Assembly: GCA_965279665.1 (NCBI GenBank)
Contig: OZ257256.1
Span: 1,475,871-1,539,870, forward strand
Source: Steroidobacteraceae bacterium
Lineage (GTDB): Bacteria; Pseudomonadota; Gammaproteobacteria; Steroidobacterales; Steroidobacteraceae
Reading direction: 5' to 3'
Length of the DNA: 64,000 bases
Both the position numbers and the translations under genes were made by a program. Shown piece by piece: positions 16,765 to 32,249 of this stretch (positions are counted from its first letter, which is position 1; every line of letters begins with the position of its first letter). Below the pieces are notes generated by a model. The model made no database searches. It had not been told where the DNA came from and was given only the letters and a program-made list of their open reading frames with translations.

Positions 16765-16780
16765 ACCCGGAGATCCCGAA

Positions 16781-17737: not shown

Positions 17738-17744
17738 TCATTCG

Positions 17745-18710
17745 GTGCTCGAAATTGGATTTGGAGCGAGTTGCTTCGCGGGTGCGGAGATGAGCGTCGA
17801 TGCCCCGTCGGGCGTGATCGCGAATACGCTGCTAGCGGAGATCTTTCGCGCGCTGTTGCGCCGATGGTGGATCCCTGCACTCACGGTAATGGTGTGCGCG
17901 GGGCTCGCTGTCTTCTATGCAATCAACGCACCGCGGGTCTACCGTGCAGAGACACTGCTGGTACCCACCGCCGAGGAACGGGTCGGTCTGGGTGGCGGCG
18001 ATCTTGCGCGCTTTGCGTCGCAGTTTAGCGGCTTATCCTCCCTGGTCGGCCTGGCTGGTGGAAGCACGGGTAGCGGCAAGGAGATCGCGATGGCAACGCT
18101 CACATCGCGCGGATTTCAGGCACGCTTGGTCGACGAACTGGGACTGATGCGAGTGTTCTTTGAGGATCGGTGGGATCCAGAAAGCAGATCGTTCCAACCC
18201 TCGTGGACCGGCGCGGTGCCCACAGTCGACGACGCCATAAAGTATTTTAATGAGCAGGTTTTCTCGGTTTCCGAAGATCGGAAGACAGGCCTTCTGCGTC
18301 TGCGGATCGAGTGGTACGACCGCAAGATCGCCGCGGAGTGGGCCAACGAGATCGTTCGACGCATCAACGAGTCGATGCGTGCGCAGGCCAGCGCGGAGGC
18401 AAAGCGGAGCATTGAGTTTCTGGAAGCGGAACTTAAGCGAACGAACAACCTCGAAGTGCAGAGATCGATTTACAGCCTCATGGAAGCGCAGGTAAATCGG
18501 ATCATGCTCGCGAATGTTCGCGAGCAGTACGCGTTCCGGGTGCTGGATTTCGCGGTTCCCCCGTCGGAGCGAAACTCGGTGCGACCACGCAAGGTCCGGA
18601 TAGTGCTTATCGGACTGATGGTCGGGATCGGCCTGGGTGTCGGTCTGATTCTGCTTTTCGAGATAACGCTGCCGCGGCGGAAAGCGCTCGCGGTTGGCAG
18701 CTTGAGGTAG
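17745..18710 (+). CDS. Wzz-like polysaccharide co-polymerase / chain-length determinant without a kinase domain
   Basis: N-terminal TM followed by 'PRVYRAETLLVP'. Long coiled-coil periplasmic region. C-terminal 'RPRKVRIVLIGLMVGIGLGVGLILLF' TM. The start may be ATG 17790. Confidence 0.75.
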   Translation: MLEIGFGASCFAGAEMSVDAPSGVIANTLLAEIFRALLRRWWIPALTVMVCAGLAVFYAINAPRVYRAETLLVPTAEERVGLGGGDLARFASQFSGLSSLVGLAGGSTGSGKEIAMATLTSRGFQARLVDELGLMRVFFEDRWDPESRSFQPSWTGAVPTVDDAIKYFNEQVFSVSEDRKTGLLRLRIEWYDRKIAAEWANEIVRRINESMRAQASAEAKRSIEFLEAELKRTNNLEVQRSIYSLMEAQVNRIMLANVREQYAFRVLDFAVPPSERNSVRPRKVRIVLIGLMVGIGLGVGLILLFEITLPRRKALAVGSLR

Positions 18711-18716
18711 CGCCGC

Positions 18717-19565
18717 GTGGAAGAGGTCGACGGTTTCAAAGCATTCACTCTCCGTTCACGGAGCTGCGCCCGCAGCGTCGCAAGAATCATGTTGAAGCGG
18801 GTTCGGCGGGATCGCAGCGTGGTGGCTGATGAATATCACCGCGGGCACTGGGCTCGGGTCTTGGAGCGTCGCGCGTGGGACGGCGCGTTCAATCTCGAAG
18901 CGTTTCTTGTCGGGGATGACGACCGCGAGATCTTCGCGCGCGCCGAGTCGCGAGTCCATCGAACACGCGTTCAGGATTACTATCGCTATCGTCTTCAAGC
19001 CTTGCCTAAGCTGCTTGAGGAGATGATCGGTGGGCGCGACGGGGTCGTCGAACTTGGGAGCGGATTTGGCTACAACCTCTTTGCGTTGTCGCTGGCCTGG
19101 CCAGGTTCCACGATGACTGGTCTTGAGCTCTCGGAGAATGGACTCGAGGCGGCGGGCGCAATCGCGGGGCATTTTCGCCTCGGCGACAGACTTCAGTTCA
19201 ACCAGATCGACCTCACGGTCCGGGGTCATCCCGGATTCGCAAGCGTTCGAGGGCGACCGGTGTTTACGTTCTTCTGTCTGGAACAGATTCCGTACGATAT
19301 CGAAGCAGTGGTCGCAAACATTCTCGATGCGCAGCCGTCGCGCATCGTGAACATCGAGCCAAGCATCGATATGTTTCGGCCATACCGATTCTCGGACTGG
19401 CCGAACTACCTGTACGTGAAGTCGGTGGACTACCAGACGCGCCTGACAGAAGTGCTAGCTTCGCTGGAGGCTCGTGGACGAATCAGAATCGTCGAGCGCC
19501 GCAGGATGCCGTTCTCGCCGACCATTCAGAACGAGGGTTTAGCAGTCGCATGGGAGCCGGTCTAA
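18717..19565 (+). CDS. class I SAM-dependent methyltransferase
   Basis: Motif I 'VVELGSGFGYNL' and motif II-like 'VFTFFCLEQIP'. It overlaps the next gene. Confidence 0.65.
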   Translation: MEEVDGFKAFTLRSRSCARSVARIMLKRVRRDRSVVADEYHRGHWARVLERRAWDGAFNLEAFLVGDDDREIFARAESRVHRTRVQDYYRYRLQALPKLLEEMIGGRDGVVELGSGFGYNLFALSLAWPGSTMTGLELSENGLEAAGAIAGHFRLGDRLQFNQIDLTVRGHPGFASVRGRPVFTFFCLEQIPYDIEAVVANILDAQPSRIVNIEPSIDMFRPYRFSDWPNYLYVKSVDYQTRLTEVLASLEARGRIRIVERRRMPFSPTIQNEGLAVAWEPV

Positions 19566-20149
19566 TGTCGATCGATGGTCTTGACTATTCTGCAGCCTTT
19601 CGCGCGGCGATTGACGCGGCTCGGGACCGGCTCGCGCGGTTGGTCGTAGAATCGGACCAAGTCGCCGCCGCAGCAGGCCTACTCATCGCGTGTTTCCGAG
19701 CCGGCGGCAAGGTCATGTTCTGCGGCAATGGCGGCTCAGCGGCCGACAGCCAACACCTTGCAGCCGAGTTCATGGGACGCTATCTCAAGGATCGCGATCC
19801 GCTACCGTCGATCGCACTGACCGTGGACACTTCGGCGCTCACGGCCATCGGCAACGACTATGGCTACGAGCAAGTGTTCTCTCGCCAGCTGCGCGGAATC
19901 GGTCGTGGCGGCGACGTCCTGGTCGGAATCTCCACGAGCGGTAACAGCGGGAACGTCGTGCGTGCGTTCGAGGCTGCACGTGAAATGGGCATCTCGACCC
20001 TGGCGCTCACTGGAGCGGGCGGCGGTCTCCTCGCTGATCTGGCCGATATCGCCATCAAGGTGCCGAGTTCGCGAACGAATGAGATTCAGGAGATGCACAT
20101 CATGATCGGCCACATGCTGTGCGGGTTCGTTGAGGACGCTGTTTGCTGA
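19565..20149 (+). CDS. gmhA: D-sedoheptulose-7-phosphate isomerase (SIS domain)
   Basis: 'FCGNGGSAADSQHLAAEF', 'LTVDTSALTAIGNDYGY', 'GISTSGNSGNV' and 'EIQEMHIMIGHMLC'. The ATG at 19565 overlaps the upstream stop (TAATG). An alternative ATG is at 19550. Confidence 0.9.
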   Translation: MSIDGLDYSAAFRAAIDAARDRLARLVVESDQVAAAAGLLIACFRAGGKVMFCGNGGSAADSQHLAAEFMGRYLKDRDPLPSIALTVDTSALTAIGNDYGYEQVFSRQLRGIGRGGDVLVGISTSGNSGNVVRAFEAAREMGISTLALTGAGGGLLADLADIAIKVPSSRTNEIQEMHIMIGHMLCGFVEDAVC

Positions 20150-21330
20150 AACAGGCTGCATTCCTTGTAGGAGGCATGGGAACCCGGCTGGGCGATCTCA
20201 CGAGATCGACACCGAAGCCACTGATCGACGTCGGCGGCAGGCCTTTCATCGACTACCTCATCGACGAGGTGGCTCGACACGGTTTCTCCGAGGTCCTGCT
20301 TCTGGCAGGCTACCTCGGTGAGCAGTTCGTCGCTCACTACGACGGCATGCAGCGGCTGGGCGCCACTATTCGTGTCGTGACCGAGCTGTCCCCCCTCGGT
20401 ACGGGCGGGGCAGTACGCGGCTCTCTTCAGCGGCTCGACCGGCAGTTCCTGCTCGCCAATGGCGATACCTTTTTCGATATCAATCTTCGCGCGCTGAGCG
20501 CGCCGCCGCCAGGCTACCTTACGATGGCGCTGCGCTCTGGGGTGGAAGGGGGGCGCTATGGGCGCGTCACCGCGGACGCAGGTCGAGTTCTGGGCTTTCA
20601 CCCGCCGGTCGACAGGCAGGCCGATCCGATCAACGCGGGCATCTACATCGTTTCCCGGGAGGTCGTGGAAGCGAGACCGGAAGGGCGGTCGTCAATAGAG
20701 CAGGATTGGTTTCCGGAATTGGCGTCTGCCGGACGCATCATCGGTTGTGAATTTGCCGGTTACTTCATCGACATGGGGGTGCCAGAGGATCTTGAACGCG
20801 CGCGGAGGGAACTACCGCTCCGAACCCGCCGGCCCGCGGTGTTCCTCGATCGCGACGGGGTCATCAACGTGGACCGTGGCTACGTGCATCGGCCCGAGGA
20901 GTTCGACTGGATCGATGGAGCCCAAGCTGCGATCAGGCTGTGCAATGACCTCGGCTACTTGGTATTCGTCGTATCGAACCAGGCAGGGGTTGCGCGCGGA
21001 TTTTATGGCGAGCAGGACGTTCGCGACCTGCACCGATGGATACAAGAACAGCTCGCAGTGCATGGCGCCCATGTCGATGCCTTCGAGTTCTGCCCGCACC
21101 ACCCCGATGGACGCATCGAGCCCTATCGGCGCAACTGCAGGCGGCGGAAGCCGGGTTCGGGCATGATCCAAGACGTCCTTGAGCGATGGCCCGTCGATCC
21201 TGCGAAGAGCTTGCTCGTCGGCGACAAGGACAGCGACATGGCGGCAGCGGTCGCTGCCGGGATCCGCGGGCACCAGTTCGAGGGCGGCAATCTGCTCGAC
21301 TTCCTGGCGCCGTACCTCGCGGAACGGTGA
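20143..21330 (+). CDS. bifunctional heptose-1-phosphate nucleotidyltransferase (HddC-like) / D,D-heptose 1,7-bisphosphate phosphatase (GmhB, HAD) fusion
   Basis: The N-terminal half has 'AFLVGGMGTRLGDLTRSTPKPLIDVGGRPF' (NTP-transferase G-loop). The C-terminal half has 'VFLDRDGVIN', 'VSNQAGVARG', 'CPHHPDG', 'RRKPGSGM' and 'VGDKDSDM' (GmhB/HAD motifs I-IV). Confidence 0.85.
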   Translation: MLKQAAFLVGGMGTRLGDLTRSTPKPLIDVGGRPFIDYLIDEVARHGFSEVLLLAGYLGEQFVAHYDGMQRLGATIRVVTELSPLGTGGAVRGSLQRLDRQFLLANGDTFFDINLRALSAPPPGYLTMALRSGVEGGRYGRVTADAGRVLGFHPPVDRQADPINAGIYIVSREVVEARPEGRSSIEQDWFPELASAGRIIGCEFAGYFIDMGVPEDLERARRELPLRTRRPAVFLDRDGVINVDRGYVHRPEEFDWIDGAQAAIRLCNDLGYLVFVVSNQAGVARGFYGEQDVRDLHRWIQEQLAVHGAHVDAFEFCPHHPDGRIEPYRRNCRRRKPGSGMIQDVLERWPVDPAKSLLVGDKDSDMAAAVAAGIRGHQFEGGNLLDFLAPYLAER

Positions 21331-21336: not shown

Positions 21337-22167
21337 TCAGAGCACCGACCGGCCGCCGTCGATTACGATGTTCTGGCCAGTCATGTAGCTCGACGCGTCC
21401 GAGCAGAGAAACTGCACGGCAGATCGGTATTCGTCGCGCATCGCCATGCGCCCCAACGGAATCAGGTCCGACAGGCGGCTGACAAACTCCTCACCCTGCC
21501 CATTGAATACGCCACCGGGTGATAGCGCATTGACGCGGACACCGTGGCGAGCCCAATAGGTCGCGAGGTACTTCGTCAGACCGACCAGCCCGTGCTTGAT
21601 GACCGAGTAAGTCACGGGCTTAACGGGCTGAAGCATCTCGTCGTCGAGATCGTCTCGACGGTAGAGGCGCTGGTCCGGTGCGATCACGGACAGGTCCGAA
21701 GCGATGTTGAGAATCACGCCCTGTCCGCGTCGGGCCATGGATGCCCCAAACGTGCGAGCGCAGAGCATCGCGCCAGTCAGCCCGACATCGATCTCGAGGC
21801 GCCACTGGTTCAGGTCGAAGACTTCGAGTCGGGTGCCATTGGCCACCCCCGGCGTGGCAGAGACCTTGGCGTCGATGGCAGCATTGTTGACCAGGATGTC
21901 GACCCTGCCGGCCAAATCGTGCAACGCGTCTATAGAGGCCAACGAGGTGACATCGAGGCGGTGGCCTTCCACCCGATTGCTGCCGGTTTCCTCCGCGACC
22001 GCACGCGCTGCAGCCTGAGCCCTGTCTTCGGCGATGTCGGCTATCAGCACTCTGGCGCCAAGCGCGGCCAGGGCAGCCGCGTGCTGCGGGCCGAGCAGTC
22101 CAGCGCCACCGGTGACGATCGCTGTGCGGCCTGTGAGGTCGAATTTGCGGTCAGGGGCTGTCGACAT
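21337..22167 (-). CDS. SDR-family oxidoreductase (PtmA-like; paralogue of 30421-31224)
   Basis: 'GRTAIVTGGAGLLG', 'YSVIKHGLVGLTKYLA' (YxxxK). It shares 'SDLSVIAPDQRLY' with 'SIYGIVAPDQRIY' of the other copy. Confidence 0.85.
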   Translation of the reverse strand: MSTAPDRKFDLTGRTAIVTGGAGLLGPQHAAALAALGARVLIADIAEDRAQAAARAVAEETGSNRVEGHRLDVTSLASIDALHDLAGRVDILVNNAAIDAKVSATPGVANGTRLEVFDLNQWRLEIDVGLTGAMLCARTFGASMARRGQGVILNIASDLSVIAPDQRLYRRDDLDDEMLQPVKPVTYSVIKHGLVGLTKYLATYWARHGVRVNALSPGGVFNGQGEEFVSRLSDLIPLGRMAMRDEYRSAVQFLCSDASSYMTGQNIVIDGGRSVL

Positions 22168-22185: not shown

Positions 22186-22944
22186 CTAGCCTCTGATCTG
22201 CCCACCGTCAGCGACATAGATCGCACCTGTGACGAATCCCGCCCGAGCCGACGCCAGGAACGCCACGATTGCCGCGACTTCCTCCGCAGTTCCGAATCGT
22301 CCGAGTGCGACGTCCTTTTCCAGCATGCTGCGGACACCCTCCGGATCTTTGGCAACGCGCTCCTGCCAACTGCCGCCGTCGAACAAAATGTTCCCTGGCG
22401 CTATCGCATTGATCCGGATGCCTTCCTTCGCCAAAGGGCGCGCCAAGCCGCGGACCGTTGCATTGAGCGCTGCCTTCGCTGCGGAGTAGGTCACCGGCGC
22501 GCCCAGCGCCTCGATACCGCAGATCGAGGATATGCAGACGATAGAGCCGCCACCAGTTGCACGCATCGCCGGTCTGACGGCCGCGATGACGTGCGTCGCC
22601 GACAGTAGATTGATGTCCAGCACGCGCTGCCACTCATTCGCGTCTTCCTCTCCAGGGGGTACCGACCTGCCACTGCCGACGTTGCAGACGGCGATGTCGA
22701 TGCGCCCCCAGCGATCCTCGGCCTCGCGGACGAAACGCGCAGCCTGCTGACGGTCTGTGGTGTCGCATCGGTGCGTTGACGCCGCCGCGCCAATTTGCGC
22801 TTGCGCTACCTCAAGTTGCTCGAGTGTACGAGCGGCGATGGCGACACTCGCGCCTTCAGCCACGAAGGCCCGCGCGATCGCTAGTCCGATGCCACGGCTC
22901 CCGCCTGCGACGATCGCCACCTTGCCTACGAGTTCGAGATTCAT
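22186..22944 (-). CDS. SDR-family oxidoreductase (FabG-like)
   Basis: 'GKVAIVAGGSRGIGLAIA', 'NVGSG' and 'YSAAKAALNATVRGLA'. Confidence 0.85.
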   Translation of the reverse strand: MNLELVGKVAIVAGGSRGIGLAIARAFVAEGASVAIAARTLEQLEVAQAQIGAAASTHRCDTTDRQQAARFVREAEDRWGRIDIAVCNVGSGRSVPPGEEDANEWQRVLDINLLSATHVIAAVRPAMRATGGGSIVCISSICGIEALGAPVTYSAAKAALNATVRGLARPLAKEGIRINAIAPGNILFDGGSWQERVAKDPEGVRSMLEKDVALGRFGTAEEVAAIVAFLASARAGFVTGAIYVADGGQIRG

Positions 22945-23789
22945 AATCGCCGCGCTGCCAGCCAGCCTGCCGTCATCGCTGCATACCCAGCGAGTACGCC
23001 CGCGTGATCACCGTCAGTCGCCCTCGCGGTCTGAAGGATAAAGCGTCCTTCAAACCTGGAGTCGCGGAGCAGCGCGAACGCTCGAGGCAGGTCGGCATTG
23101 CCAGTACCAAGCGGCACCGTGGTGCCACCGAGTACTCGGTCCTTGACATGGACGTTCCGGATGCGAGGTCCATATGCGGAGATCTCCTCGCCGCAGTCGA
23201 AACCCAATGCCGCACTGTTGCCGATATCGTAATTCACACCGAAGCAGTCGACGGGTAGTTGCTCGATGAATCGAGCGAGTTCCTGGGGTCCGTAGTCGCA
23301 CTCAAACGCGACGACAAGTCCGTCGCGCCTGAGGCGATCGGCGCGCGAGCCGAATTCGTTGGCCACCACCTGCTCATGATCGGAACTCGCCATGGCGCCA
23401 GCATCGACGAGAGGTACGACGACGATGCCGATGCCGGCCGCGGCACAGGCATCGAGGACGAGATCGAGCTCTGCGAGCCGCGTGGCACGCTCGGAGCCCG
23501 CGGTTCGCCAGAAGGGGGCCTGCATGAAGATGTCGCCGGTCAATGAGACCGGGCGCACGCCGTGTCGGCGAGTGAGCTCTGCGATCTCGCGCTGGCCCGC
23601 ATCCGTCAGCAAAGGGTTCTCGCGAAACCTCTCATGATCGAGAGTCCACTCGAGCATGCCGAGCCCGAGTGCCTCTGCAGCCGGGAACTCGTCGCGCCAG
23701 TGCGTCCAGGGAAACGCCTGGATGCGCCCGTCGACCAGCGGCGAGAGCCTGCCCTGCATGAAGCCGATTCGGTTGAGACTGCTCATCAC
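22941..23789 (-). CDS. sugar-phosphate isomerase/epimerase (xylose-isomerase-like TIM barrel, UlaE/SgbU-like)
   Basis: 'RIGFMQGRLSP...W..EF..A..LGLGMLEW', 'VAFECDY', 'VNYDIGNS' and 'VHVKDR' are typical of the AP_endonuc_2/TIM-barrel family. Confidence 0.7.
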   Translation of the reverse strand: MMSSLNRIGFMQGRLSPLVDGRIQAFPWTHWRDEFPAAEALGLGMLEWTLDHERFRENPLLTDAGQREIAELTRRHGVRPVSLTGDIFMQAPFWRTAGSERATRLAELDLVLDACAAAGIGIVVVPLVDAGAMASSDHEQVVANEFGSRADRLRRDGLVVAFECDYGPQELARFIEQLPVDCFGVNYDIGNSAALGFDCGEEISAYGPRIRNVHVKDRVLGGTTVPLGTGNADLPRAFALLRDSRFEGRFILQTARATDGDHAGVLAGYAAMTAGWLAARRL

Positions 23790-24556
23790 TGATCCACGGC
23801 GACCAAGCCATTCGCCGTCCAGCCGCCATCAATGAAGATTTCCTGGCCTGTCATGTATGCCGACGCGTCCGAGGCTAGGAAGACCGCTGCACCGGCGATG
23901 TCCTCCGGGTCGCCCCAGCGTCCCAGCAGGGTATGGCTCTGACGTTGCCGGTTCAGCGCAGGATCGTTGAAGCTCCTGTCCGTCATCGCCGTGTGCACAT
24001 AGCCTGGCGCCAGGCTGTTCACCCTGATGCGCTCACCTCCGAGGTCGACCGCGAGAGCGCGAGTGAGGCCTGCGAGTCCCGACTTCGCGGCCACGTAGCC
24101 CGGATTCCCGGGGAATCCCAGCCTCGAATTGATGCTGGTGATGTTGATGATGCTTGCTGCCTTCGAGCGGCGCAGCGCAGGTAGCAGTGCGAGTACCAGT
24201 CGATACGGTGCGATGAGGTCGACCTCGAGAGTCGTGCGCATGCGCTCGATCTCCCTCTCGGCATCCTGTGCGGGCGGCAGGCTGATCGCCGCGGCGTTAA
24301 CGAGGATATCGAGGCGACCCGATGACGAGTCGATCACGCGGCGCACGGCTTGCGGAGCGTCCGCGCTCCCGACGTCCAGCGAAAGGTGCCGAAGCCGCGA
24401 GGTATCGTGGCCGCCGCTGCGGCTGATCGCCAGCACGTCGGCTCCAGCGTTACAGAGGGCGAGCGCGATGGCCGCGCCTATGCCGCGAGAGGCGCCGGTG
24501 ACGACGGCTTGGCGGCCCTCAAGCGGCGGGCACATGGTCCGGTGCAAGTCAGACAT
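23786..24556 (-). CDS. SDR-family oxidoreductase
   Basis: 'GRQAVVTGASRGIGAAIA', 'NAAA' and 'YVAAKSGLAGLTRALA'. Confidence 0.85.
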   Translation of the reverse strand: MSDLHRTMCPPLEGRQAVVTGASRGIGAAIALALCNAGADVLAISRSGGHDTSRLRHLSLDVGSADAPQAVRRVIDSSSGRLDILVNAAAISLPPAQDAEREIERMRTTLEVDLIAPYRLVLALLPALRRSKAASIINITSINSRLGFPGNPGYVAAKSGLAGLTRALAVDLGGERIRVNSLAPGYVHTAMTDRSFNDPALNRQRQSHTLLGRWGDPEDIAGAAVFLASDASAYMTGQEIFIDGGWTANGLVAVDQ

Positions 24557-25250
24557 AGCCGTAACCGCGCATGATGGCCTCGCACAGCCGGATGTCTTCC
24601 GGCCGGTCGATCTGGAACATCTTATGGCGTTCCATCACGGACATGCCGATACGCCCGCCCAGCCGATTCATGGTCTGCCGGAGTTGGGACGGGCGAAACA
24701 CATAGAATGAACCATTCTCCAAGTAGCGCTTCTCGATCTCCTGGCGGCGGCGCCTGTTCCGCCAGTCGTAGTTGACGGACTCGGCGAGACCATCCGCGCT
24801 GACACGCCAGTTGAAGAAGTCCTCCACCTCGCAGACGGTCAGGACGCTGTCCAGCTTTTCCGTCGCCAGAAGCGAGATCGCTTGATCAATGTCCGATGGC
24901 TCGCGGATCGGCGACGTCGCCTGCATCGCGACCACGAGGTCGAACGTCCCGGACTGTCGTTCCCGCGCGTCGAGGGCGTGCAGCCAAGCCGACTCGGAAC
25001 TGGCAGTGTCGCCGGCGATGTCCGGTGGCCGCGGCACTGCCACTGCGCCGAAGGCCTGAGCAGTAGCGAGTATTTCGTCACTGTCGCTCGATACCGCGAC
25101 TTCGGCGATTGCGGCAGACGCGCGCGCCTGCTCGATAGACCAGGCCAGCAGCGGTTTGCCGCAAAGGTCGATGAGGTTCTTGCGGGGGATGCCCTTTGAG
25201 CCTCCGCGGGCTGCAATTACAGCAAGGATGCGCGGGCGCGAATCCTTCAA
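24549..25250 (-). CDS. acylneuraminate (CMP-ulosonic acid) cytidylyltransferase family, copy 1
   Basis: 'ILAVIAARGGSKGIPRKNLIDLCGKPLLAWSI' P-loop-like CTP-binding motif, 'MQATSPIR' and 'NGSFYVF'. Confidence 0.88.
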   Translation of the reverse strand: MKDSRPRILAVIAARGGSKGIPRKNLIDLCGKPLLAWSIEQARASAAIAEVAVSSDSDEILATAQAFGAVAVPRPPDIAGDTASSESAWLHALDARERQSGTFDLVVAMQATSPIREPSDIDQAISLLATEKLDSVLTVCEVEDFFNWRVSADGLAESVNYDWRNRRRRQEIEKRYLENGSFYVFRPSQLRQTMNRLGGRIGMSVMERHKMFQIDRPEDIRLCEAIMRGYGYV

Positions 25251-27169
25251 AGGTATGGCTCCAGCTTGTCGAGCGCCACCCAGAAGCCTTCGCCCAGGTT
25301 CTTGTGCCCCTGCCAGATCTCGGGAATGAAGCTCGCGTGCGGTGCATGGACTTGCATCGTCTCGCCGAGTGCCCGGAAGTCGATCTCACCGTCTCCAACC
25401 TGCAGGCCTTCGCCGTCCACGCCGCGCGCGTCGCCAAGATGATAGTGCGCCGTGTAGGGTCCGAGCGCCGCAATTCCCTGCAGGAAGTCGAATCCGAAGT
25501 GATTGGCCGCAAGCCGGGTATGGGACACATCGACGCACATTCGCAGACTGAGCTCCTCACAAACGTGAGCGGACTCTTCCGGGAGAATGAAGATGTTCTG
25601 GTGCCGCTGCCCCCCAAAATGCCACGGGAAAGGGGCCATCGTCTGCGGTATGAGTTCTACGCCATCGAGGTCAAGCTCGCGAAGGCTGCGAGCGAAGGTC
25701 TCGTACAGGCGGGGCTTCTCGGACCCTGCCAACGGCACGTCGGTAGAGAACCCACCGACGTTTGCCACGATCGGTGGTCGCTCGGTGCCGGGAAAGTAGG
25801 GCTTCAGCGCGCGCGTGATGTCGATGACGCGCTGGGTTTCGCGGATCGAGAACTGACGGTATTCCTCGTCGGCGGAAGCGAGGTCCATCAGTCTGCTCCC
25901 TGAAAACAGTTCCGGCGCGTGTACGACGAATCCTACCGAGTAGGTACCGGAGAAGTACGACGCCGGATCGCGGTCCATGTCCTGATAGCTCAGATGGAAC
26001 TCGATGACGTCGGGCTCGGACCGTGCGATAAATGCGAGGGCATCGTGGTACCGGACCGGCACGCCCCATGGACGCTTGAACCGGTAGCGGCGCAGCGCGC
26101 TGGCGTCGTCCGCGAGATCGGATGCGAAGAAGTAGTCGTCTGCACCCACTTTTCGGTGCAGACGGCGGCCTATGAGGCCCGGCAGGTTGATCGGTGAGAG
26201 TCCTTGGCCCGGGCTTCTGACAATAACGTCGGATTCCTCGACGAGATGACCGGCGGCCAGGTCGCGCGAAGCGACTAGGCTCTTCGCGAGATTCTCTCGA
26301 TTGATCAGTTCTCCCTGACTGAGCGGCCGTTCGCCGTCGACGCTGGCGACCCCCATGGCGCTCTCCACTTCTCGAATGCCAGTGACCAGCGACGCGAACT
26401 CCCCTGGCTCTAGGCTCGCGGCATGGTCAGGACCTTCCATAGTTCGGTCGAGCGTGATGTGCCGTTCTACGATGCAGGCGCCGAGTGCGACGGCGGCCAA
26501 GGTCACCGCGGTACCGCGCTCGTGACCCGAGTAGCCGATGACCGGATGCAGTTCGCGGAGCGTCTCCATGAAGCGCAGGTTGATGTTGTGGAATGCCGCC
26601 GGGTACGTGCTCTGGCAGTGCAGGAGCGCGAATGCCGCCGAGCGGGCACCGAGAAAGTTGACCACCGCCGTGATCTCGGCAAGACGGCTCATCCCGGTCG
26701 AAAGAACGAAAGGCTTGCCCGTGGCTGCGATCGCCCCGAGAAGAGGCAGATTCGTCAGGTCCGCTGATGCGACCTTGTAGGCCGGGACGTCGAAGGATTC
26801 TAGCGCTCGCAGGCTCGAGACGTCCCAAGGCGTGCACAGATATGCGATGCCGCGCTGGGAGCAGTATTCTTTGAGTCTCCGATGCTTTTCCGGAGGCAGT
26901 TCGAACCTGCGCAGCAGGTCGAGCGTGTACTCGACCGAGAGATCGTCCTCACTTCCGGCGAGGCTACGCGCTCGGTAGACTTCCTCGAGCTTGCGCATCT
27001 GGAATTTCGCGCAATCTGCCCGTGCGTCGACTGCAGCATCGATAAGAGAGATGGCCCGATCGAAGTCGCCGTTGTGGTTGTTGCCGACCTCTGCGATGAC
27101 AAAGCACGCTTCGCCAGGGCCGACACTCCGGTCGGCAATCCGCAGTTTGTTCGAAGGAAACTGGGTCAT
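25247..27169 (-). CDS. NeuB-family PEP-condensing ulosonic-acid synthase (NeuB + SAF) fused to a C-terminal xylose-isomerase-like TIM-barrel domain
   Basis: Starts at ATG 27169 ('MTQFPSNK'). The ORF-track extension to 27514 overlaps the upstream gene. NeuB motifs 'FVIAEVGNNHNGD', 'ADCAKFQ', 'YKVASADLTN', 'STGMS', 'LLHCQSTYP' and 'GYSGHE'. SAF-like 'LVASRDLAAGHLVEESDVIVRSPGQG'. A further ~290 aa follows ('IEFHLSY', 'VVHAPE', 'VANVGG', 'CVDVSHT', 'HYHLGD'). Confidence 0.85.
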   Translation of the reverse strand: MTQFPSNKLRIADRSVGPGEACFVIAEVGNNHNGDFDRAISLIDAAVDARADCAKFQMRKLEEVYRARSLAGSEDDLSVEYTLDLLRRFELPPEKHRRLKEYCSQRGIAYLCTPWDVSSLRALESFDVPAYKVASADLTNLPLLGAIAATGKPFVLSTGMSRLAEITAVVNFLGARSAAFALLHCQSTYPAAFHNINLRFMETLRELHPVIGYSGHERGTAVTLAAVALGACIVERHITLDRTMEGPDHAASLEPGEFASLVTGIREVESAMGVASVDGERPLSQGELINRENLAKSLVASRDLAAGHLVEESDVIVRSPGQGLSPINLPGLIGRRLHRKVGADDYFFASDLADDASALRRYRFKRPWGVPVRYHDALAFIARSEPDVIEFHLSYQDMDRDPASYFSGTYSVGFVVHAPELFSGSRLMDLASADEEYRQFSIRETQRVIDITRALKPYFPGTERPPIVANVGGFSTDVPLAGSEKPRLYETFARSLRELDLDGVELIPQTMAPFPWHFGGQRHQNIFILPEESAHVCEELSLRMCVDVSHTRLAANHFGFDFLQGIAALGPYTAHYHLGDARGVDGEGLQVGDGEIDFRALGETMQVHAPHASFIPEIWQGHKNLGEGFWVALDKLEPYL

Positions 27170-27180
27170 CCGGTCACCCG

Positions 27181-28629
27181 CTAGGCGATGGCATCGGCGC
27201 GGCCCGCACTCGTGCCCGCCCCAGCAATGTTGCCAAGCACGGGGGTCGCCGCCGCGGGTAATTCGGACAGCCGGGTGCGCCACGAACGCAGACCGCCGTC
27301 CTCGAACATCACCCTCTCGCAACGGTAGCCGCGACTCGACATGACGTCGAGGACCCGACACTGCTGGAACGGCGGCACGAAGAACATGAAGAACCCGCCG
27401 CCGCCGGCGCCGAGAATCTTGCCGCCGAGGGCGCCCTGGGCGATCGCGGTGTCGTAGATCCCGTCCAGTTCGCCATCGCTGATCATCGGGCTGTCCTGAC
27501 GCTTCAGGACCCATGCCTCATGCAGCAGGCGTCCATAACCGTAGACGTCGCCACGCAGCAGACGACGCTTCATTTCAAGAGTGAGTTCCTTGGTACGGCC
27601 GCGCGACGCAGCCGACTTGGCTCCTGGCGAGAGTAGTCTTGCGCGCTGATCCCGGTGAATGGCACCCGAGTCGTGCTTGCGGCCCGTGTAGCAGAGTAGC
27701 AGGGTCTCTTCGAGTTCCGAGATGGTCTTGGGTTCGAGACGCAGAGGAAAGATCACGTTGTGGTCCGCGGTGAATTCCATGAAGTTGAATCCGCCGAACA
27801 CCGCTGCATATTGATCCTGCCATCCGCCCGGAATGTTTAGGATCAGGCGCTCGGCCTGGAATGCCATTTCCGAGATCTGGTGCTTATCCCAGGGATCCGA
27901 CCGGAATTCGTTGAAGCAACCGATAACAGCCGCAGCGACAGAAGCGGATCCACCAAGCCCGGAACCAACTGGATAGTCAGCCGCCACTTCGATCTCGAAG
28001 CCAAAACCAGGCTGGATCATTTGAATCACCGAAACGATGAGGTCCAGTTCCCCGTTTAGCTCGAGGTCCGCTGGCGAGACCGCTTCGACCGTTCGCTTTA
28101 GGTCGTGAGAGTAGATTCGCACGCGCGAGTCGGTGCGGCGGCGCAGCGTGGCATGGGCATACTTGCGAATTGCGGCATTCATAACCACGCCGCCCTGATC
28201 GACGAAATAGTGTGTCAGGTCGGTTCCGCCGCCGCCGAAGGTGATACGCGCCGGCGCCCTGGCGCGCGCGAAAACTTCCTCCTCGGCGTCCGGACGGAAG
28301 TCGCTGCGGCTGCATAGATCAACGAGGCGGCGCTGGGTGTCCAAGATCGGTACGTGGTGCACGCGGTGGTCCAGCAGTTTCAGTATTTGTTCCCGCGCGG
28401 TGCCAGCAGCGGCCCAGATGAACTCCTGATTCATGAATGCTGCGAGGCTCGCTCCGAGGTCGTTGTCCGTGAGCAGCCGACGGCGAATGTCACCGTCGGT
28501 GATACAACCGACGATGCGGGCGTCGCTGTCGGTCGCGAACAAAATTCCCAGCTGGTTTGCGTTGAGTTGACGAAACGCCTCCTGGATCGTCGCTGCCGCA
28601 GGAATGCACACACTTCTCAACTTCGACAT
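27181..28629 (-). CDS. CBS-pair domain fused to a GHMP sugar kinase (HddA / heptose-7-phosphate kinase-like)
   Basis: The N-terminal ~115 aa form a CBS pair ('ARIVGCITDGDIRRRLL', 'HHVPILDTQRRLVDLCSRSDF'). The kinase part has 'RAPARITFGGGGTDLTHYF', 'DYPVGSGLGGSASVAAAVIG' (GHMP motif II) and 'GGKILGAGGGGFFMFF' (motif III). Confidence 0.85.
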   Translation of the reverse strand: MSKLRSVCIPAAATIQEAFRQLNANQLGILFATDSDARIVGCITDGDIRRRLLTDNDLGASLAAFMNQEFIWAAAGTAREQILKLLDHRVHHVPILDTQRRLVDLCSRSDFRPDAEEEVFARARAPARITFGGGGTDLTHYFVDQGGVVMNAAIRKYAHATLRRRTDSRVRIYSHDLKRTVEAVSPADLELNGELDLIVSVIQMIQPGFGFEIEVAADYPVGSGLGGSASVAAAVIGCFNEFRSDPWDKHQISEMAFQAERLILNIPGGWQDQYAAVFGGFNFMEFTADHNVIFPLRLEPKTISELEETLLLCYTGRKHDSGAIHRDQRARLLSPGAKSAASRGRTKELTLEMKRRLLRGDVYGYGRLLHEAWVLKRQDSPMISDGELDGIYDTAIAQGALGGKILGAGGGGFFMFFVPPFQQCRVLDVMSSRGYRCERVMFEDGGLRSWRTRLSELPAAATPVLGNIAGAGTSAGRADAIA

Positions 28630-28770
28630 ACAAGTCTCGATTCCCGACCGAATGGCCAGTTACCATATGATTTTGCCATATCGAGCCGGCGGAAAACCGA
28701 TGTCCGAAGCAATCTGTGTCTTGGTATCCAGGATCTGTGCGCGTGGTCACAGGGGTAGGCAATCCCTGTG
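28630..28770. promoter_or_regulatory. divergent control region between the two ulosonic-acid operons; inverted repeat over the SD/start of the plus-strand operon
   Basis: 138-bp gene-free spacer. CACAGGG (28748-28754) and CCCTGTG (28764-28770) form a 7-bp inverted repeat with a 9-nt loop. The repeat covers the AGGGG/GGTAGG SD-like purines and the GTG start (28768). Confidence 0.4.
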
Positions 28771-29739
28771 AGGATCCTGGTTGCCGGGACCGGTTCTATC
28801 GGTCGACGTCACGTGGAGTCCATTCGGGCGCTTCGCTCCGGAGCCGAATTCGTGTTCCTGCGACGCGATGTCCGCGCCGACGAGTACTCCCGGTCCCTCG
28901 GCGCGACCATCGCCACGGACATCGACGAGGCGCTGGCACTCCAGCCCGACATGGCCATCGTCGCCAATCCCTCGCATGGTCATGCTGAACTCGTGCTCAC
29001 ACTGCTGAAGGCCCGGATGCCTATGTATGTCGAGAAGCCGGTGGCGACGGATGCGTCGCAGATCGCGGCGATCCGCGGCGCAATGGTTCTGCAGGACCCG
29101 CCGACCGTTCTGTGCGGCTGCAACCTGAGGTTCCTGCCGGCGTTGCAGGTGTTGCGTGGACTGCTGCGAGACGGGCGAATCGGCCGTGTCGTCCGTGCCA
29201 CGTTCCAGGTCGGTCAGTGGCTGCCTTCGTGGCGTCCAGGGATCGATTACCGTCATTCGTACAGTGCCCGCCGCGACCTCGGTGGCGGCGTCGTGCTTGA
29301 TCTAGTGCACGAACTCGATGCGGCTCTCTGGTTACTCGGCGAGCTCGACGTTGCTGCGGCAGTGGGCGGCCATTGCAGCAGCCTCGAGATCCATAGTGAA
29401 GATGCGGCCTGGGTGCTGCTCTCGCGCCCGGAAGGTCCCGTCGTCGCTGTCGGCCTGGACTATATCGCGCGCCGTCCTCTGCGCCGGTACGAGTTCATCG
29501 GTGAGGACGGCACTTTGGTGATCGATCTAATCAGTCGCAGCATGGCTGTCGAGACGGCGTCGGGCATCGAGCCTGTCGAGATGCCCGAAGGTGCCTTCGA
29601 CATCGCGCAAACGTATCGAACAGCGATGACGGAGTTCATGGACGCCATGGCTCGCGGGTCGCAGACCAGCCAGGACCTGGCTGAGGGGCTGCGATCGGCA
29701 GAACTGGCCGTGCGTGCCAATGGAATGATCCGACAATGA
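28768..29739 (+). CDS. Gfo/Idh/MocA-family NAD(P)-dependent oxidoreductase (PtmF-like)
   Basis: 'MRILVAGTGSIGRRHV' Rossmann start and the 'VEKPVA' (EKP) motif. Confidence 0.85.
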   Translation: MRILVAGTGSIGRRHVESIRALRSGAEFVFLRRDVRADEYSRSLGATIATDIDEALALQPDMAIVANPSHGHAELVLTLLKARMPMYVEKPVATDASQIAAIRGAMVLQDPPTVLCGCNLRFLPALQVLRGLLRDGRIGRVVRATFQVGQWLPSWRPGIDYRHSYSARRDLGGGVVLDLVHELDAALWLLGELDVAAAVGGHCSSLEIHSEDAAWVLLSRPEGPVVAVGLDYIARRPLRRYEFIGEDGTLVIDLISRSMAVETASGIEPVEMPEGAFDIAQTYRTAMTEFMDAMARGSQTSQDLAEGLRSAELAVRANGMIRQ

Positions 29740-30428
29740 CCACGATCGCCACGATCTGCGCGCGCGGTGGATCCACGGGGCTGCCGCGAAAGAACATCCG
29801 GCCGCTGCTGGGGAGGCCCCTGATCGTCTGGACCATCCAGCAGGCGCTTGCGGTTCCGCGTATCGATGCCACCTTCGTCTCGACCGACGACGACGAAATT
29901 GCTGCCGTCGCCGCGGCCGCTGGTGCGCGCGTGCTCGGCCGGCGTCCGGCCCATCTCGCAACCCAGACGGCCCCAAAGATCCCGGTCATCGAGCACCTCG
30001 TGGGGCAGGTAGAAGCGACTGGGCTCGCCGTCGATTGCATCGTCGACCTGGATCCGACCTCGCCGCTGCGGGCGGTCACCGACATCGAAGCCTGCATCAA
30101 TCTGCTGACGGATGAAGTCGACGCGGTCATCACGGGATTCCCGTCTGAGAAGAATCCTTACTTCAACATGGTCGAGCAGCAGGCTGACGGGAACTTCAGG
30201 CTGGTGAAGCAGCCGCCGGGAGCAGTCGGTGGGCGGCAGCAGGCGCCACTGGTGTACTCCATGAATGCGTCCGTCTATGTCTGGCATCGACGGACGCTGG
30301 CGCTCGGATTGTGGGGAGGACGGGTGCGCCTGCACTCCATGCCGCGCGAGAGATCCATCGACATCGATTCGCTCCTCGACTTTCGTCTGGTCGAGATGAT
30401 TCTTCAGGAGAGGCTGGCGCATGACTGA
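29736..30428 (+). CDS. acylneuraminate (CMP-ulosonic acid) cytidylyltransferase family, copy 2
   Basis: 'TICARGGSTGLPRKNIRPLLGRPLIVWTI' and 'LDPTSPLR'. ATGA overlap with the upstream gene. Confidence 0.88.
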   Translation: MTTIATICARGGSTGLPRKNIRPLLGRPLIVWTIQQALAVPRIDATFVSTDDDEIAAVAAAAGARVLGRRPAHLATQTAPKIPVIEHLVGQVEATGLAVDCIVDLDPTSPLRAVTDIEACINLLTDEVDAVITGFPSEKNPYFNMVEQQADGNFRLVKQPPGAVGGRQQAPLVYSMNASVYVWHRRTLALGLWGGRVRLHSMPRERSIDIDSLLDFRLVEMILQERLAHD

Positions 30429-31224
30429 TTCGCGGTTTCGCCTAGACGGGCGCGTCTGCGTGGTGACGGGGGGTGCCGGAATCCTGGGCGAGCCCATGTG
30501 TCACGCGCTGCTGACGCAGGGTGCGCGCGTGGCCGTCCTCGATCGGGAGACAAGCAGTCTCGAGGCGGCGCTGTCGCGCATGCCGGCGGCCTTCCGCGAT
30601 CAGGTGGTGATGGTTCGCGCTGACATCACCGATCGCGAAGATCTCGTCCGCGCACGCGCGGATATTCGATCGGCACTCGGCGACGCGGACGTTTTGGTCA
30701 ACAACGCGGCGGCGAAGAGCGCCAATTTCTTCGAGCCGTTCGAGTCGTTCCCGCTCGCGGACTGGAACGAAGTCATGGGCGTGAACCTGACCGGCGCCAT
30801 GCTGTGCTGCCAAGTGTTCGGCGCGTCGATGGCCGAACGCCAGCGTGGCAGTATCATAAACACCCTGTCGATCTACGGAATCGTGGCGCCCGACCAGCGC
30901 ATCTACGAAGGTGCGTTCTACGAGGGCATGGCGATCAACACGCCTGCCGTTTACAGCGCCAGCAAGGCGGGCCTCTGGGGACTGACGAAGTATCTCGCAG
31001 CCTACTGGGGGGCGGCGGGCGTCCGGGTCAACGCCATCACGCCCGGAGGAGTCTTCAGCGGCCAGAACGACGCCTTCGTGCAGCGCTACAGCGCGCGCGT
31101 GCCTCTCGGGCGAATGGGCCAGCGCGAAGAGATGGCGTCGGCTGTGGTCTACCTTGCGTCGGACGCGTCGTCCTACGTGACGGGGCTGAATCTGGTGGTG
31201 GACGGGGGGCTCACGGCATGGTGA
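30421..31224 (+). CDS. SDR-family oxidoreductase (PtmA-like)
   Basis: 'GRVCVVTGGAGILG', 'NNAA' and 'YSASKAGLWGLTKYLA'. Confidence 0.85.
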   Translation: MTDSRFRLDGRVCVVTGGAGILGEPMCHALLTQGARVAVLDRETSSLEAALSRMPAAFRDQVVMVRADITDREDLVRARADIRSALGDADVLVNNAAAKSANFFEPFESFPLADWNEVMGVNLTGAMLCCQVFGASMAERQRGSIINTLSIYGIVAPDQRIYEGAFYEGMAINTPAVYSASKAGLWGLTKYLAAYWGAAGVRVNAITPGGVFSGQNDAFVQRYSARVPLGRMGQREEMASAVVYLASDASSYVTGLNLVVDGGLTAW

Positions 31225-32249
31225 GTTCATCTTCGTGCTACGTGATCGCCGAGGCCGGCGTCAACCACAACGGCTCGCTTGATCTTGCGCTGCGCCTGAT
31301 CGACGCGGCGGTTGAGGCCGGCGCCGACGCGGTCAAGTTCCAGACTTTCCGCGCCGAGACGCTCGTCGGCGCCGGTGTGTCGAAGGCGGCATACCAGGAG
31401 CGTGCTACCGGCGGCGGTGATCAGCGGGCGATGCTCAAGGCGCTGGAACTCGCGTTTGAAGACCACGTCGCGCTATACGAACGCTGCGTGGAGCTCGGAA
31501 TCGAATTCCTGTCGACGCCGTTCGACGCGGAGGCGCTCAAGTTCCTGGTCGGCCTCGGCATGCGTCGCGTCAAAATTGCGTCCGGAGAGTTGACCAACCG
31601 ACCATTCATCGAGCTCGCCGCGTCCACGGGTCTGCCGATCATTCTCTCGACGGGGATGGCGGAGTTGTCGGAGGTCGGCGAAGCGATCGATTGGATCCAA
31701 CGTGCGCGCCCGTCGCCGATGCCGACCGCCGAAATCGTGCTGCTTCACTGCACATCGAACTATCCGACGGCGCTCGTGGACGTGAACCTGCGCGCGATGT
31801 CGACCATGGCGCAGGCATTCGGGCTGACCGTTGGCTACTCGGACCACACTGCAGGAATCGAGGTGGCGCCTCTCGCCGTTGCGCTCGGGGCGATGGTGAT
31901 CGAGAAGCACTTCACGCTGGATCGTTCACTACCGGGCCCCGACCACATGGCGTCGCTTGAGGTGCCCGAACTGCGCGAGATGATCCGGTCCATCCGGTCC
32001 GCCGGTATTGCGCTTGGCGATGGTGCGAAGGCGCCCCGCCCGGCCGAGATCGCAGTCAGGGATCTGGTTAGGCGCAGCGTCGCGGCCCGACACGACCTGC
32101 CGGCTGGCCACGTGCTGCGAAGCGAAGATCTGAGCTGTATGCGTCCCGGAACCGGGATTCCGCCCAAAAACCTCGGTTCCGTCGCAGGGCGCTCGTTGCG
32201 CCGGGCAATATCTGCCGGCGCATTGATCACGGAGCAGGATCTGGCGTGA
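31218..32249 (+). CDS. neuB: N-acetylneuraminate/legionaminate synthase family (NeuB + SAF)
   Basis: The ATG at 31218 gives 'MVSSSSCYVIAEAGVNHNGSL'. Also 'ADAVKFQTF', 'VKIASGELTN', 'STGMA', 'LLHCTSNYP' and 'GYSDHT'. The ORF-track start at 30804 lies inside the preceding SDR gene. Confidence 0.92.
   Translation: MVSSSSCYVIAEAGVNHNGSLDLALRLIDAAVEAGADAVKFQTFRAETLVGAGVSKAAYQERATGGGDQRAMLKALELAFEDHVALYERCVELGIEFLSTPFDAEALKFLVGLGMRRVKIASGELTNRPFIELAASTGLPIILSTGMAELSEVGEAIDWIQRARPSPMPTAEIVLLHCTSNYPTALVDVNLRAMSTMAQAFGLTVGYSDHTAGIEVAPLAVALGAMVIEKHFTLDRSLPGPDHMASLEVPELREMIRSIRSAGIALGDGAKAPRPAEIAVRDLVRRSVAARHDLPAGHVLRSEDLSCMRPGTGIPPKNLGSVAGRSLRRAISAGALITEQDLA

Follow-up and report, generated by a model that had tools for sequence, protein, structure and literature searches.

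The NeuB–SAF–TIM gene

The DNA analysed here, below called the window, is a stretch of 64,000 nucleotides (nt) from a Steroidobacteraceae bacterium (GenBank assembly GCA_965279665.1, contig OZ257256.1, positions 1,475,871 to 1,539,870 of the forward strand). Within a capsule/exopolysaccharide (EPS) locus, it carries a gene in which a NeuB catalytic domain and an SAF domain are followed in the same reading frame by a triosephosphate isomerase (TIM) barrel. This gene encodes a genuine, ancient bifunctional enzyme. An earlier note, made from the letters alone, had described it as a NeuB-SAF synthase fused in frame to a xylose-isomerase-like TIM barrel. Both parts of that description are borne out, the fusion by a single 640-aa open reading frame (ORF) with three Pfam domains, and the fold of the extension by Pfam (AP_endonuc_2), AlphaFold2 (AF2) and Foldseek. 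The gene and its domains, including one that condenses phosphoenolpyruvate (PEP) and one related to endonuclease IV (EndoIV), are as follows.

25247..27169, minus strand: NeuB-SAF-TIM barrel fusion gene, 640 aa (ORF and translation, Pfam, full-length homologues, AF2)
26348..27046, minus strand: NeuB catalytic (PEP-condensing) domain, aa 42-274 (Pfam PF03102, E=4.8e-83, 278.8 bits)
26114..26284, minus strand: SAF (antifreeze-like) domain, aa 296-352 (Pfam PF08666, E=3e-9, 37.7 bits)
25250..26068, minus strand: MJ1311/EndoIV-like metallo-TIM-barrel domain, aa 368-640 (Pfam PF01261, AF2, Foldseek, profile against PDB)

The uninterrupted minus-strand ORF spans 25247..27514. Its start was placed at the ATG at 27169 (MTQFPSNKL...), in agreement with the N-termini and lengths of homologues (99-100 % coverage, mostly 630-660 aa), which gives 640 aa plus a stop and leaves 11 nt to the stop of the preceding gene (27181..28629). 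Scores for PF03102 and PF08666 both exceed the Pfam cut-off, the AP_endonuc_2 match covers aa 387-627 (E=3.6e-17, 63.3 bits against a cut-off of 31.1), and all four motifs singled out earlier as signs of the barrel (IEFHLSY, VVHAPE, CVDVSHT and HYHLGD) occur in the translation. AF2 models the whole 640-aa chain with a mean pLDDT of 91.9. Judged by homologues of the same architecture and by this confident whole-chain model, there is no frameshift or assembly join at the junction.

Distribution and age of the fusion

The 120 best matches in a collection of 5.8 billion proteins (69-100 % identity) all have the same three domains and about equal length. Their source names are 'N-acetylneuraminate synthase family protein' or 'sialic acid synthase SpsE/sugar phosphate isomerase/epimerase'; NCBI and JGI already annotate the fusion family, in generic terms. 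Searching with the TIM half alone against 1.84 billion cluster representatives returned 831 matches, 186 of them (50 % identity clusters) at E<=1e-30. Among those listed, the full-length members are NeuB-SAF-TIM proteins of ~620-640 aa or CBS-NeuB-SAF-TIM proteins of ~730-770 aa, a few are free-standing domains of ~270-300 aa, and many of the short matches seem to be truncated. Other fusion partners were considered and set aside: the 400-540-aa proteins among these matches are truncated NeuB-SAF-TIM fragments, and one is a TIM domain with CBS.

With one genome scanned per species, the NeuB-SAF-TIM architecture was counted at no fewer than 595 loci. Their hosts are Alpha-, Beta- and Gammaproteobacteria, Actinobacteria, Cyanobacteria, Chloroflexi, Bacteroidota, Verrucomicrobia, Planctomycetes, candidate phyla radiation (CPR) phyla and one haloarchaeon. 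The closest locus among these species-representative genomes has 73 % identity, the window's own species not being among those matched. The fusion, whose spread the earlier note wished to see surveyed, is neither rare nor confined to this genome; it belongs to a large and old family. From this family, genomic context was compared in 80 loci (cited by L-numbers, with L080 carrying an unfused NeuB), residue conservation in 74 fusions and strand-resolved neighbours in 77 loci.

The fusion is not an assembly artefact, because the 120 best matches share its architecture, the best matches to the N-half and the C-half lie in one ORF at 76 of 79 loci, and AF2 models the whole chain confidently. Pairwise identities of the two halves correlate with r=0.90 (Mantel 0/999), and in a distance comparison with unfused NeuB, the fused NeuB domains are monophyletic. 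This correlation and the single clade point to one old fusion that has been passed on whole. The sole clearly split case seen is that of an Arsukibacterium metagenome-assembled genome (MAG; L078:10053-11931). There, no single ORF covers the fusion; it falls into three that differ in frame, and its NeuB part occupies 10157-11089, its TIM part 11092-11931. The break is either a pseudogene or the result of MAG assembly errors.

The NeuB-SAF half

The N-half aligns to Neisseria meningitidis NeuB (NmNeuB; PDB 1xuu) with E=7.6e-50 and a Foldseek TMt of 0.88, and TMt values against NeuB and PseI structures are 0.87-0.89. Seven residues, E27, K55, Q57, H216, E235, H237 and D248, are kept in 74 of 74 fusions. 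They are the aligned counterparts of NmNeuB E25, K53, Q55, H215, E234, H236 and D247, which include the metal-binding His pair and PEP/substrate residues. Since all seven are retained throughout, the condensing activity should be intact. On sequence and structure alike, the N-half is recognisable as a metal-dependent, PEP-condensing ulosonic acid synthase with a complete predicted catalytic apparatus. The SAF motif of the fusion reads VRSPGQG where canonical NeuB has K-R314-P-G. The fused copy scores below the NCBIfam equivalog cut-offs for both NeuB_NnaB (TIGR03569, 321.8 against 399.65) and PseI (TIGR03586, 225.7 against 340.25). It is thus a member of the NeuB family, yet no N-acetylneuraminate or pseudaminate synthase equivalog.

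The TIM-barrel half

Modelled on its own, the TIM domain is a (beta/alpha)8 barrel with the alternating strand/helix pattern and a pLDDT of 95.4. Foldseek finds it about equally and moderately similar to ketose 3-epimerases, MJ1311, UlaE and endonuclease IV (TM 0.56-0.69, with a probability of 1.0 to family members). A profile compared with PDB sequences separates these relatives: MJ1311 matches at 2.2e-13, endonuclease IV at 1.6e-5 and 1.7e-4, and UlaE at just 0.19.

MJ1311 reportedly conserves all nine EndoIV metal ligands (His69, His109, Glu145, Asp179, His182, His216, Asp229, His231 and Glu261), and the MJ1311 alignment, which spans eight of these nine positions, agrees with this. The window protein has counterparts of five (His69=H417, Asp179=D547, His182=H550, His216=H577 and Glu261=E617). 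A second branch of fusions, which has His and Glu at the positions of His109 and Glu145, has seven. MJ1311 itself is given as the Methanocaldococcus jannaschii EndoIV homologue (PMC2770678).

Positions 470 and 509, the equivalents of EndoIV His109 and Glu145, vary in a coupled way: 22 of the 74 fusions have His with Glu, 52 have Asn, Ser or Thr with Gln, and none is mixed. The window protein is of the Asn/Gln form (N470, Q509). The His/Glu form is found in Chloroflexi, CPR, archaeal, Desulfobacterota and other proteins without CBS, and is nearest to an unfused, HAD-coupled clade of synthases described below. It seems that a single event removed or remodelled one of the metal sub-sites. In the TIM domain as a whole, invariant or near-invariant residues are R373, E390, H392 (73/74), D397, H417, W516, D547, H550, H577, D580, E587, E617 and H622, about 12 of the polar TIM residues being ~100 % conserved across the fusions. 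The invariant Glu587 sits beside the place of an absent segment that holds Asp229 and His231 in EndoIV. This set of invariant polar residues, together with the strict coupling of 470 and 509, argues for selection on a working site.

The position of EndoIV Glu145 is also that of the first catalytic Glu in ketose 3-epimerases. The metal-ligand check that the earlier note had called for was run on their Glu-Asp-His-Glu tetrad: D547, H577 and E617 are present, and Gln509 takes the place of the first Glu, so that the complete tetrad is not found. Compared with KdsC/Kdn-9-phosphate phosphatases (HAD C0; Kdn being 2-keto-3-deoxynononic acid), the TIM domain has neither the DxDGVLTDG motif nor the HAD Rossmann-like fold. 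The TIM half is a metal-binding barrel of a separate MJ1311/EndoIV-like branch that is almost exclusively attached to NeuB. It is under strong selection at an active-site-like cluster and is neither a canonical epimerase nor a canonical EndoIV.

Genomic context of the fusion

Across the compared loci, one neighbour of the fusion alone is constant, a cytidylyltransferase of the CTP_transf_3 family. Of 80 loci, 61-64 have a homologue of it, which mostly abuts or overlaps the fusion; in 48 of 77 loci it lies on the strand of the fusion within 3.5 kb, and it stands beside the fusion even in the streamlined genomes of CPR bacteria, Prochlorococcus and Pseudothioglobus. The other 120 same-strand neighbours include methyltransferases, glycosyltransferases (some polysialyltransferase-like), sulfotransferases and radical-SAM enzymes; no recurrent phosphatase or PseG was found among these 120, and a NeuC-like protein just once. 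Because the cytidylyltransferase is the sole constant partner and neither a phosphatase nor NeuC recurs, the fusion and the cytidylyltransferase look like a self-contained module that leads from a central metabolite and PEP to a sugar activated with cytidine monophosphate (CMP).

In the window, the fusion is surrounded by the following genes, several of which encode short-chain dehydrogenases/reductases (SDRs).

24549..25250, minus strand: cytidylyltransferase (CTP_transf_3), start overlapping the fusion stop (Pfam; NCBIfam PseF-like 119.6 bits, under cut-off)
27181..28629, minus strand: CBS-pair + GHMP kinase, HddA-like (Pfam CBS, GHMP_kinases_N, GHMP_kinases_C; NCBIfam HddA 242.8 bits against a cut-off of 600)
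23786..24556, minus strand: classical SDR oxidoreductase, probable tailoring enzyme (Pfam adh_short_C2, E=8.9e-53; subgroup operon)
22941..23789, minus strand: free-standing AP_endonuc_2 TIM-barrel protein, TIM2 (Pfam, E=1.2e-22)
22186..22944, minus strand: classical SDR oxidoreductase (Pfam; subgroup operon)
21337..22167, minus strand: SDR oxidoreductase, same cluster as the SDR of the neighbouring Leg-like cluster (Pfam; BLAST matches in 39 of 80 loci, median 45 % identity)
19550..20149, plus strand: GmhA-type sedoheptulose-7-phosphate isomerase (NCBIfam gmhA 208.9 bits against a cut-off of 209.45; PRK13936 213.6 bits)
20143..21330, plus strand: HddC-like nucleotidyltransferase fused to a GmhB-type HAD phosphatase, 395 aa (Pfam NTP_transferase + HAD; GmhB TIGR00213 151.6 bits against 149.6; HddC 111 bits)

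From 28629 to 21337, the genes on the minus strand follow one another closely or overlap, and GmhA and HddC-GmhB (19550-21330) are divergent. These genes place the window in a subgroup of 19 loci from Bradyrhizobium and relatives, Rhodobacterales, Algibacillus, a flavobacterium, Burkholderia and Pseudomonas/Stutzerimonas. The subgroup operon comprises an HddC-like nucleotidyltransferase, the CBS-GHMP (HddA-like) kinase, the fusion without CBS, a GmhA-like SIS isomerase, the cytidylyltransferase, an SDR, TIM2, two further SDRs and a GmhB-like HAD. In most of these 19 loci, the gene immediately upstream of the fusion is the kinase, and a homologous GmhA/SIS gene directly follows the fusion in L007, L008 and L030. 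The HddC-GmhB fusion is also seen in Bradyrhizobium-like loci, and L006-L008 have separate genes.

TIM2 is present in 18 loci, nearly all of the kinase subgroup. The earlier note had presented it as a free-standing member of the same superfamily three genes downstream of the fusion, and it is indeed the third gene downstream; BLASTP aligns it to the fused domain at 30 % identity over just 69 aa (E=3e-5), and as a remote relative, not a close paralogue, it says little on the function of that domain.

A CBS pair is N-terminal on the NeuB-TIM fusion in most other lineages (the ~750-aa forms). In the window, CBS pairs are found on two unusual partners, the HddA-like kinase (27181-28629, minus strand) and a DegT-type aminotransferase (33794-35461, plus strand). 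This regulatory module seems to move to whichever enzyme begins the pathway. Because it sits on the kinase in the window's subgroup and on the fusion in most lineages, its position suggests that the kinase controls the entry or a branch point there.

The fusion is also found in other settings. In L017, L021, L025, L041 and L076 (Burkholderia pyrrocinia and Pseudomonas/Stutzerimonas; ~11.8-13.7 kb each) and at L024:7689-9578, a thiamine diphosphate (ThDP) enzyme of ~600-670 aa (TPP_enzyme_N/M/C) follows the fusion in place of the cytidylyltransferase. Upstream of the fusion, the Pseudomonas/Stutzerimonas and Burkholderia loci have DegT and an NDP-sugar (nucleoside diphosphate sugar) 4,6-dehydratase, joined in Pseudomonas/Stutzerimonas by a nucleotidyltransferase, and an FkbM methyltransferase is near the fusion in L021, L025 and L076. 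YerE-like ThDP enzymes use polyhydroxylated alpha-keto acids to make acyl-branched sugars (PMC9306805), and the fusion product in the ThDP loci may be the donor for a long-branched sugar. In marine subgroup members (L006, L007 and L009; ~13.2-17.2 kb), additional genes between those for the cytidylyltransferase and the SDRs encode a methyltransferase, a class-III aminotransferase and a glyoxalase/VOC-fold protein, an indication that these loci make the same sugar acid in an aminated, methylated form.

Elsewhere in the capsule locus, a second, divergent nonulosonic acid cluster of legionaminic-acid type (28768-35461, plus strand) encodes a GFO/IDH/MocA oxidoreductase, a cytidylyltransferase, an SDR, a canonical NeuB, a NeuC-type hydrolysing 2-epimerase, a PglD-like acetyltransferase and the CBS-DegT aminotransferase. 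Its NeuB is of the plain two-domain kind that had been set against the fusion in the earlier note (31221-32246, plus strand; 342 aa, NeuB+SAF; NCBIfam NeuB_NnaB 414.8 against a cut-off of 399.65). A PglF-like 4,6-dehydratase lies beyond this cluster at 46158-48146 (plus strand). From its gene content, the capsule locus appears to make two different ulosonic acids. Export and assembly genes (9800-18710 and 40169-43247, plus strand) encode a Wzz/GNVR protein, a pair of Wzi paralogues and a Wza-like exporter of 944 aa that carries several SLBB domains. These regions also include a gene for a Capsule_synth (PF05159) protein, with one for a DUF6418 protein after it. In 11 loci other than the window, the gene that comes directly after the fusion is of the Capsule_synth family, and the Capsule_synth-family protein is thus a candidate transferase for the ulosonic acid.

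An unfused sister clade with a phosphatase

The ANME-type archaeal locus L080 has the gene order cytidylyltransferase, NeuB+SAF, KdsC-family phosphatase ORF. We considered it as a split NeuB and TIM pair and rejected this, as the downstream ORF is not a TIM barrel but a KdsC-type phosphatase (TIGR01670 181.9 bits against a cut-off of 106.95; Kdn-9-phosphate phosphatase model NF058599 169 bits against a cut-off of 180). At its C-terminus, this ORF (L080:8012-8872) has a cupin region that weakly matches the mannose-6-phosphate isomerase part of GMP_PMI, and it may be a phosphatase-isomerase fusion for a Kdn-type pathway. Synthases of the L080 type form a large family. Four more diverse members have a CTP_transf_3, a NeuB+SAF and a Hydrolase_3 gene (150-175 aa), with overlapping gene ends in some, so that the order CTP_transf_3, NeuB+SAF, KdsC-type HAD is found in five of five contexts inspected, L080 included. 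Two Chloroflexi loci have the KdsC-like domain as part of the cytidylyltransferase protein, next to an unfused NeuB.

Measured by distance, no sampled relative is nearer to the fused clade than these HAD-coupled synthases (0.54-0.56 for the closest unfused ones); ordinary LegI/NeuB paralogues are ~0.72 away. The HAD-coupled clade lies at 0.64 from the Asn/Gln branch and at 0.56 from the His/Glu branch, the latter being equal to the distance between the two fused branches. A hidden Markov model of the sister-clade KdsC-type HADs found none beside any fused gene in the 80 loci and in positions 15001-38000 of the window. In the sister clades, HAD and TIM thus take the same place in the operon, with complementary distributions, and for these reasons we tentatively propose that the TIM domain is a non-orthologous replacement of the KdsC-type HAD phosphatase, a proposal that we hold at somewhat below even odds. 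The domain would then work like a KdsC phosphatase without belonging to that family. Where the earlier note had offered an isomerisation, an epimerisation or a dephosphorylation-type step, the canonical mechanism for the first two is disfavoured (Gln509, and a profile that points to MJ1311/EndoIV rather than UlaE), and the last has the best indirect support, from the phosphatase of the sister clade.

Proposed function

In the pathway that we favour, the synthase half would condense PEP with an aldose phosphate, resulting in a 3-deoxy-2-ulosonic acid that still carries a terminal phosphate. The TIM domain would remove this phosphate, in the stead of a KdsC-type HAD phosphatase, and the translationally coupled cytidylyltransferase would then form a CMP-sugar for capsule or glycan assembly. 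We put the probability of this overall explanation, a synthase with a TIM phosphatase followed by CMP activation, at roughly 0.4.

For the window, the aldose phosphate is, with less weight, probably D-glycero-D-manno-heptose 7-phosphate supplied by the nearby GmhA, which would lead to a ten-carbon (C10) ulosonic acid. It is an obvious substrate because GmhA follows the fusion in three subgroup loci and lies near it in the window; like mannose 6-phosphate (Man-6-P), it is a manno-configured aldose phosphate. The three SDRs and TIM2 would tailor the C10 acid, and the HddA-like kinase, with its CBS pair, would regulate the point of branching towards guanosine diphosphate (GDP) heptose, which the HddA-like, GmhB and HddC-like genes may make instead or as well. 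CMP-activated higher-carbon (C10) ulosonic acids have been detected by mass spectrometry in Magnetospirillum gryphiswaldense, in passages of a 2026 preprint that name no genes for them (bioRxiv 10.64898/2026.04.20.719630), so such sugars do exist in Alphaproteobacteria. Taken further, the NeuB-TIM fusion and its cytidylyltransferase, fed by GmhA, would be a pathway to CMP-C10 ulosonic acids, the TIM domain would be the first of a new class of non-HAD phosphatases derived from an EndoIV/MJ1311-like barrel, and in Pseudomonas/Burkholderia the synthase would feed a YerE-like ThDP carboligase that makes long acyl-branched sugars; this extended version is improbable.

Two other C10 or Kdn systems were considered and dropped. 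Bradyrhizose, a C10 bicyclic sugar, came to mind as many Bradyrhizobium have the fusion; its published candidate cluster is a dTDP-glucose-dehydratase operon in photosynthetic strains, with NeuB unmentioned. For the teichulosonic acid (Kdn) clusters of actinomycetes, the literature found gives the polymer structure without gene assignment.

Several points weigh against a phosphatase role and the pathway built on it. We know of no phosphatase with the fold of the TIM domain, and its top structural matches are ketose 3-epimerases, at TM-scores of just 0.6-0.69. A trinuclear EndoIV-type centre is unlikely in the window protein because only five of nine EndoIV ligands are kept there, His109 and Glu145 being replaced by Asn470 and Gln509 and the Asp229/His231 insert being gone. 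The sample of the sister clade is small and biased to relatives of one query, and positional replacement falls short of proving functional equivalence. The HddA-like, GmhB-like and HddC-like enzymes of the subgroup would lead to GDP-heptose, and by that route no terminal phosphate is left; the GmhB-like HAD could also be the phosphatase itself. Lastly, the Magnetospirillum C10 acids have two N-acetyl groups, which the window operon alone does not explain (bioRxiv 10.64898/2026.04.20.719630).

Alternative roles for the TIM domain

Instead of removing a phosphate, the TIM domain could act as an aldose-ketose isomerase or an epimerase and so provide the aldose for the synthase, for instance by turning fructose 6-phosphate into Man-6-P or by 2-epimerisation. 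Such a role agrees with the Pfam family name and with two of the step types offered in the earlier note, with the ketose 3-epimerases and UlaE as top Foldseek matches and with the Asp-His-Glu of the canonical metal site (D547, H577 and E617), and the L080 ORF at the equivalent position has its weak mannose-6-phosphate-isomerase-like C-terminal region. We consider it unlikely, however, as the first catalytic/metal Glu is Gln509 in 52 of 74 fusions, window protein included, the profile is nearer to EndoIV than to UlaE, GmhA already covers isomerisation in the window's subgroup, and the pathway would still be left without a phosphatase.

Hydrolysis before condensation would give the domain a NeuC/LegG/PseG-like job: as a phosphodiesterase-type enzyme, it would convert a GDP-sugar or sugar 1-phosphate (GDP-heptose here, GDP-mannose in minimal clusters) into a free reducing sugar that is passed to the NeuB site. 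EndoIV chemistry is the cleavage of a phosphodiester with an alkoxide leaving group, and the domain is EndoIV-like by profile. NeuC and PseG homologues are lacking at fused loci (save the one NeuC-like protein among 120 neighbours), NDP-sugar dehydratase/epimerase genes lie within 3.5 kb at 21 of 77 loci, and the window's subgroup encodes a whole GDP-heptose route (GmhA, HddA-like, GmhB and HddC-like), in which a CBS pair on the kinase, and on the fusion elsewhere, fits each as the committed step. The sister unfused clade nonetheless has as its partners KdsC-type phosphatases, enzymes that remove the terminal phosphate from ulosonic acids, and not NDP-sugar hydrolases; the fold is without precedent for such an activity and the metal site is incomplete in the window branch, which together make this role quite unlikely.

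The two remaining roles account for less of the evidence. If the domain tailored the nascent 2-keto-3-deoxy acid via C3 enolisation (4-OH elimination, C4 inversion or cyclisation) before CMP activation or ThDP use, its retention whether a cytidylyltransferase or a ThDP enzyme follows would link it to the acid itself, and the superfamily does contain metal-dependent dehydratases that act beside a carbonyl (IolE and AsbF). This is very unlikely, as no known ulosonic acid needs such a step, the missing phosphatase or hydrolase would be left unexplained, and the pattern of KdsC-type HAD replacement points elsewhere. A non-catalytic structural, oligomerisation or regulatory module derived from a decayed enzyme would fit the loss of two EndoIV-type ligands in the window branch, and is highly improbable against ~12 polar active-site-type residues that are invariant across phyla and a 470/509 pair that varies only in a strictly coupled way.

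Novelty and significance

Under several wordings, the literature searched gave no description of the NeuB-SAF-TIM architecture; most subscription journals are outside this coverage, and prior work is possible. Within the same literature, the earlier note's remark that characterised nonulosonic pathways know no such link holds up. The architecture is already visible in databases, and it has a concrete, testable tie to higher-carbon ulosonic acids.

Nonulosonic and related ulosonic acids decorate capsules, lipopolysaccharides, flagella and S-layers, and shape immune recognition and phage sensitivity. Hundreds of species, among them Bradyrhizobium, Pseudomonas, Rothia, marine cyanobacteria, CPR bacteria and a haloarchaeon, have an unstudied second, putatively catalytic domain on this synthase, and the pipeline label 'N-acetylneuraminate synthase family protein' is probably wrong on the product. 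If the TIM domain is a phosphatase, the phosphorylated three-step route (synthase, phosphatase, CMP-synthetase) would be far commoner in prokaryotes than its HAD version implies, and a new phosphatase type would exist within a DNA-repair/sugar-isomerase fold. If the heptose link is true, the operon would offer a testable gene set for C10 CMP-ulosonic acids and an enzymatic way to such rare sugars.

Comparison with known systems

With the NeuB/LegI/PseI synthases (NmNeuB, 1xuu), the fusion shares the NeuB barrel, the SAF domain and all PEP, metal and catalytic residues. It differs from them by its separate clade, its extra domain of ~270 aa, the shifted SAF Arg motif (VRSPGQG) and equivalog scores under the cut-offs, and it likely takes a phosphorylated aldose, in the window a seven-carbon one.

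The nearest solved sequence relatives of the TIM half are MJ1311 (PDB 3wqo) and endonuclease IV, which it resembles in the VHAP...(I/L)NLAS-type, CxDxxH, HxxD and xxE motifs. Unlike endonuclease IV, it has Asn470 and Gln509, lacks the Asp229/His231 insert and is attached to a sugar-acid synthase; TM-scores are only 0.56-0.69, and nothing points to DNA binding. Ketose 3-epimerases and UlaE have the same fold, give the best Foldseek E-values and share the Asp-His-Glu of the metal tetrad, whereas the TIM half has Gln at the first catalytic Glu (window branch), extra invariant His, Glu and Arg residues on strands 1-3, and a UlaE profile E of 0.19.

The closest parallel to the whole locus lies in pathways that combine a Kdn-9-phosphate or N-acetylneuraminic acid 9-phosphate (Neu5Ac-9-P) synthase with a KdsC-type HAD and a CMP-synthetase. 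In the Bacteroides thetaiotaomicron Kdn pathway and in animals (NANS, NANP and CMAS), the synthases make Kdn-9-P and Neu5Ac-9-P. At fused loci, the phosphatase position is filled by a metallo-TIM barrel that is unrelated to HAD and whose phosphatase role is putative. The fused loci share with these pathways the gene order and, as proposed, the three-step logic, and HAD-coupled synthases are the nearest sampled relatives of the fused clade.

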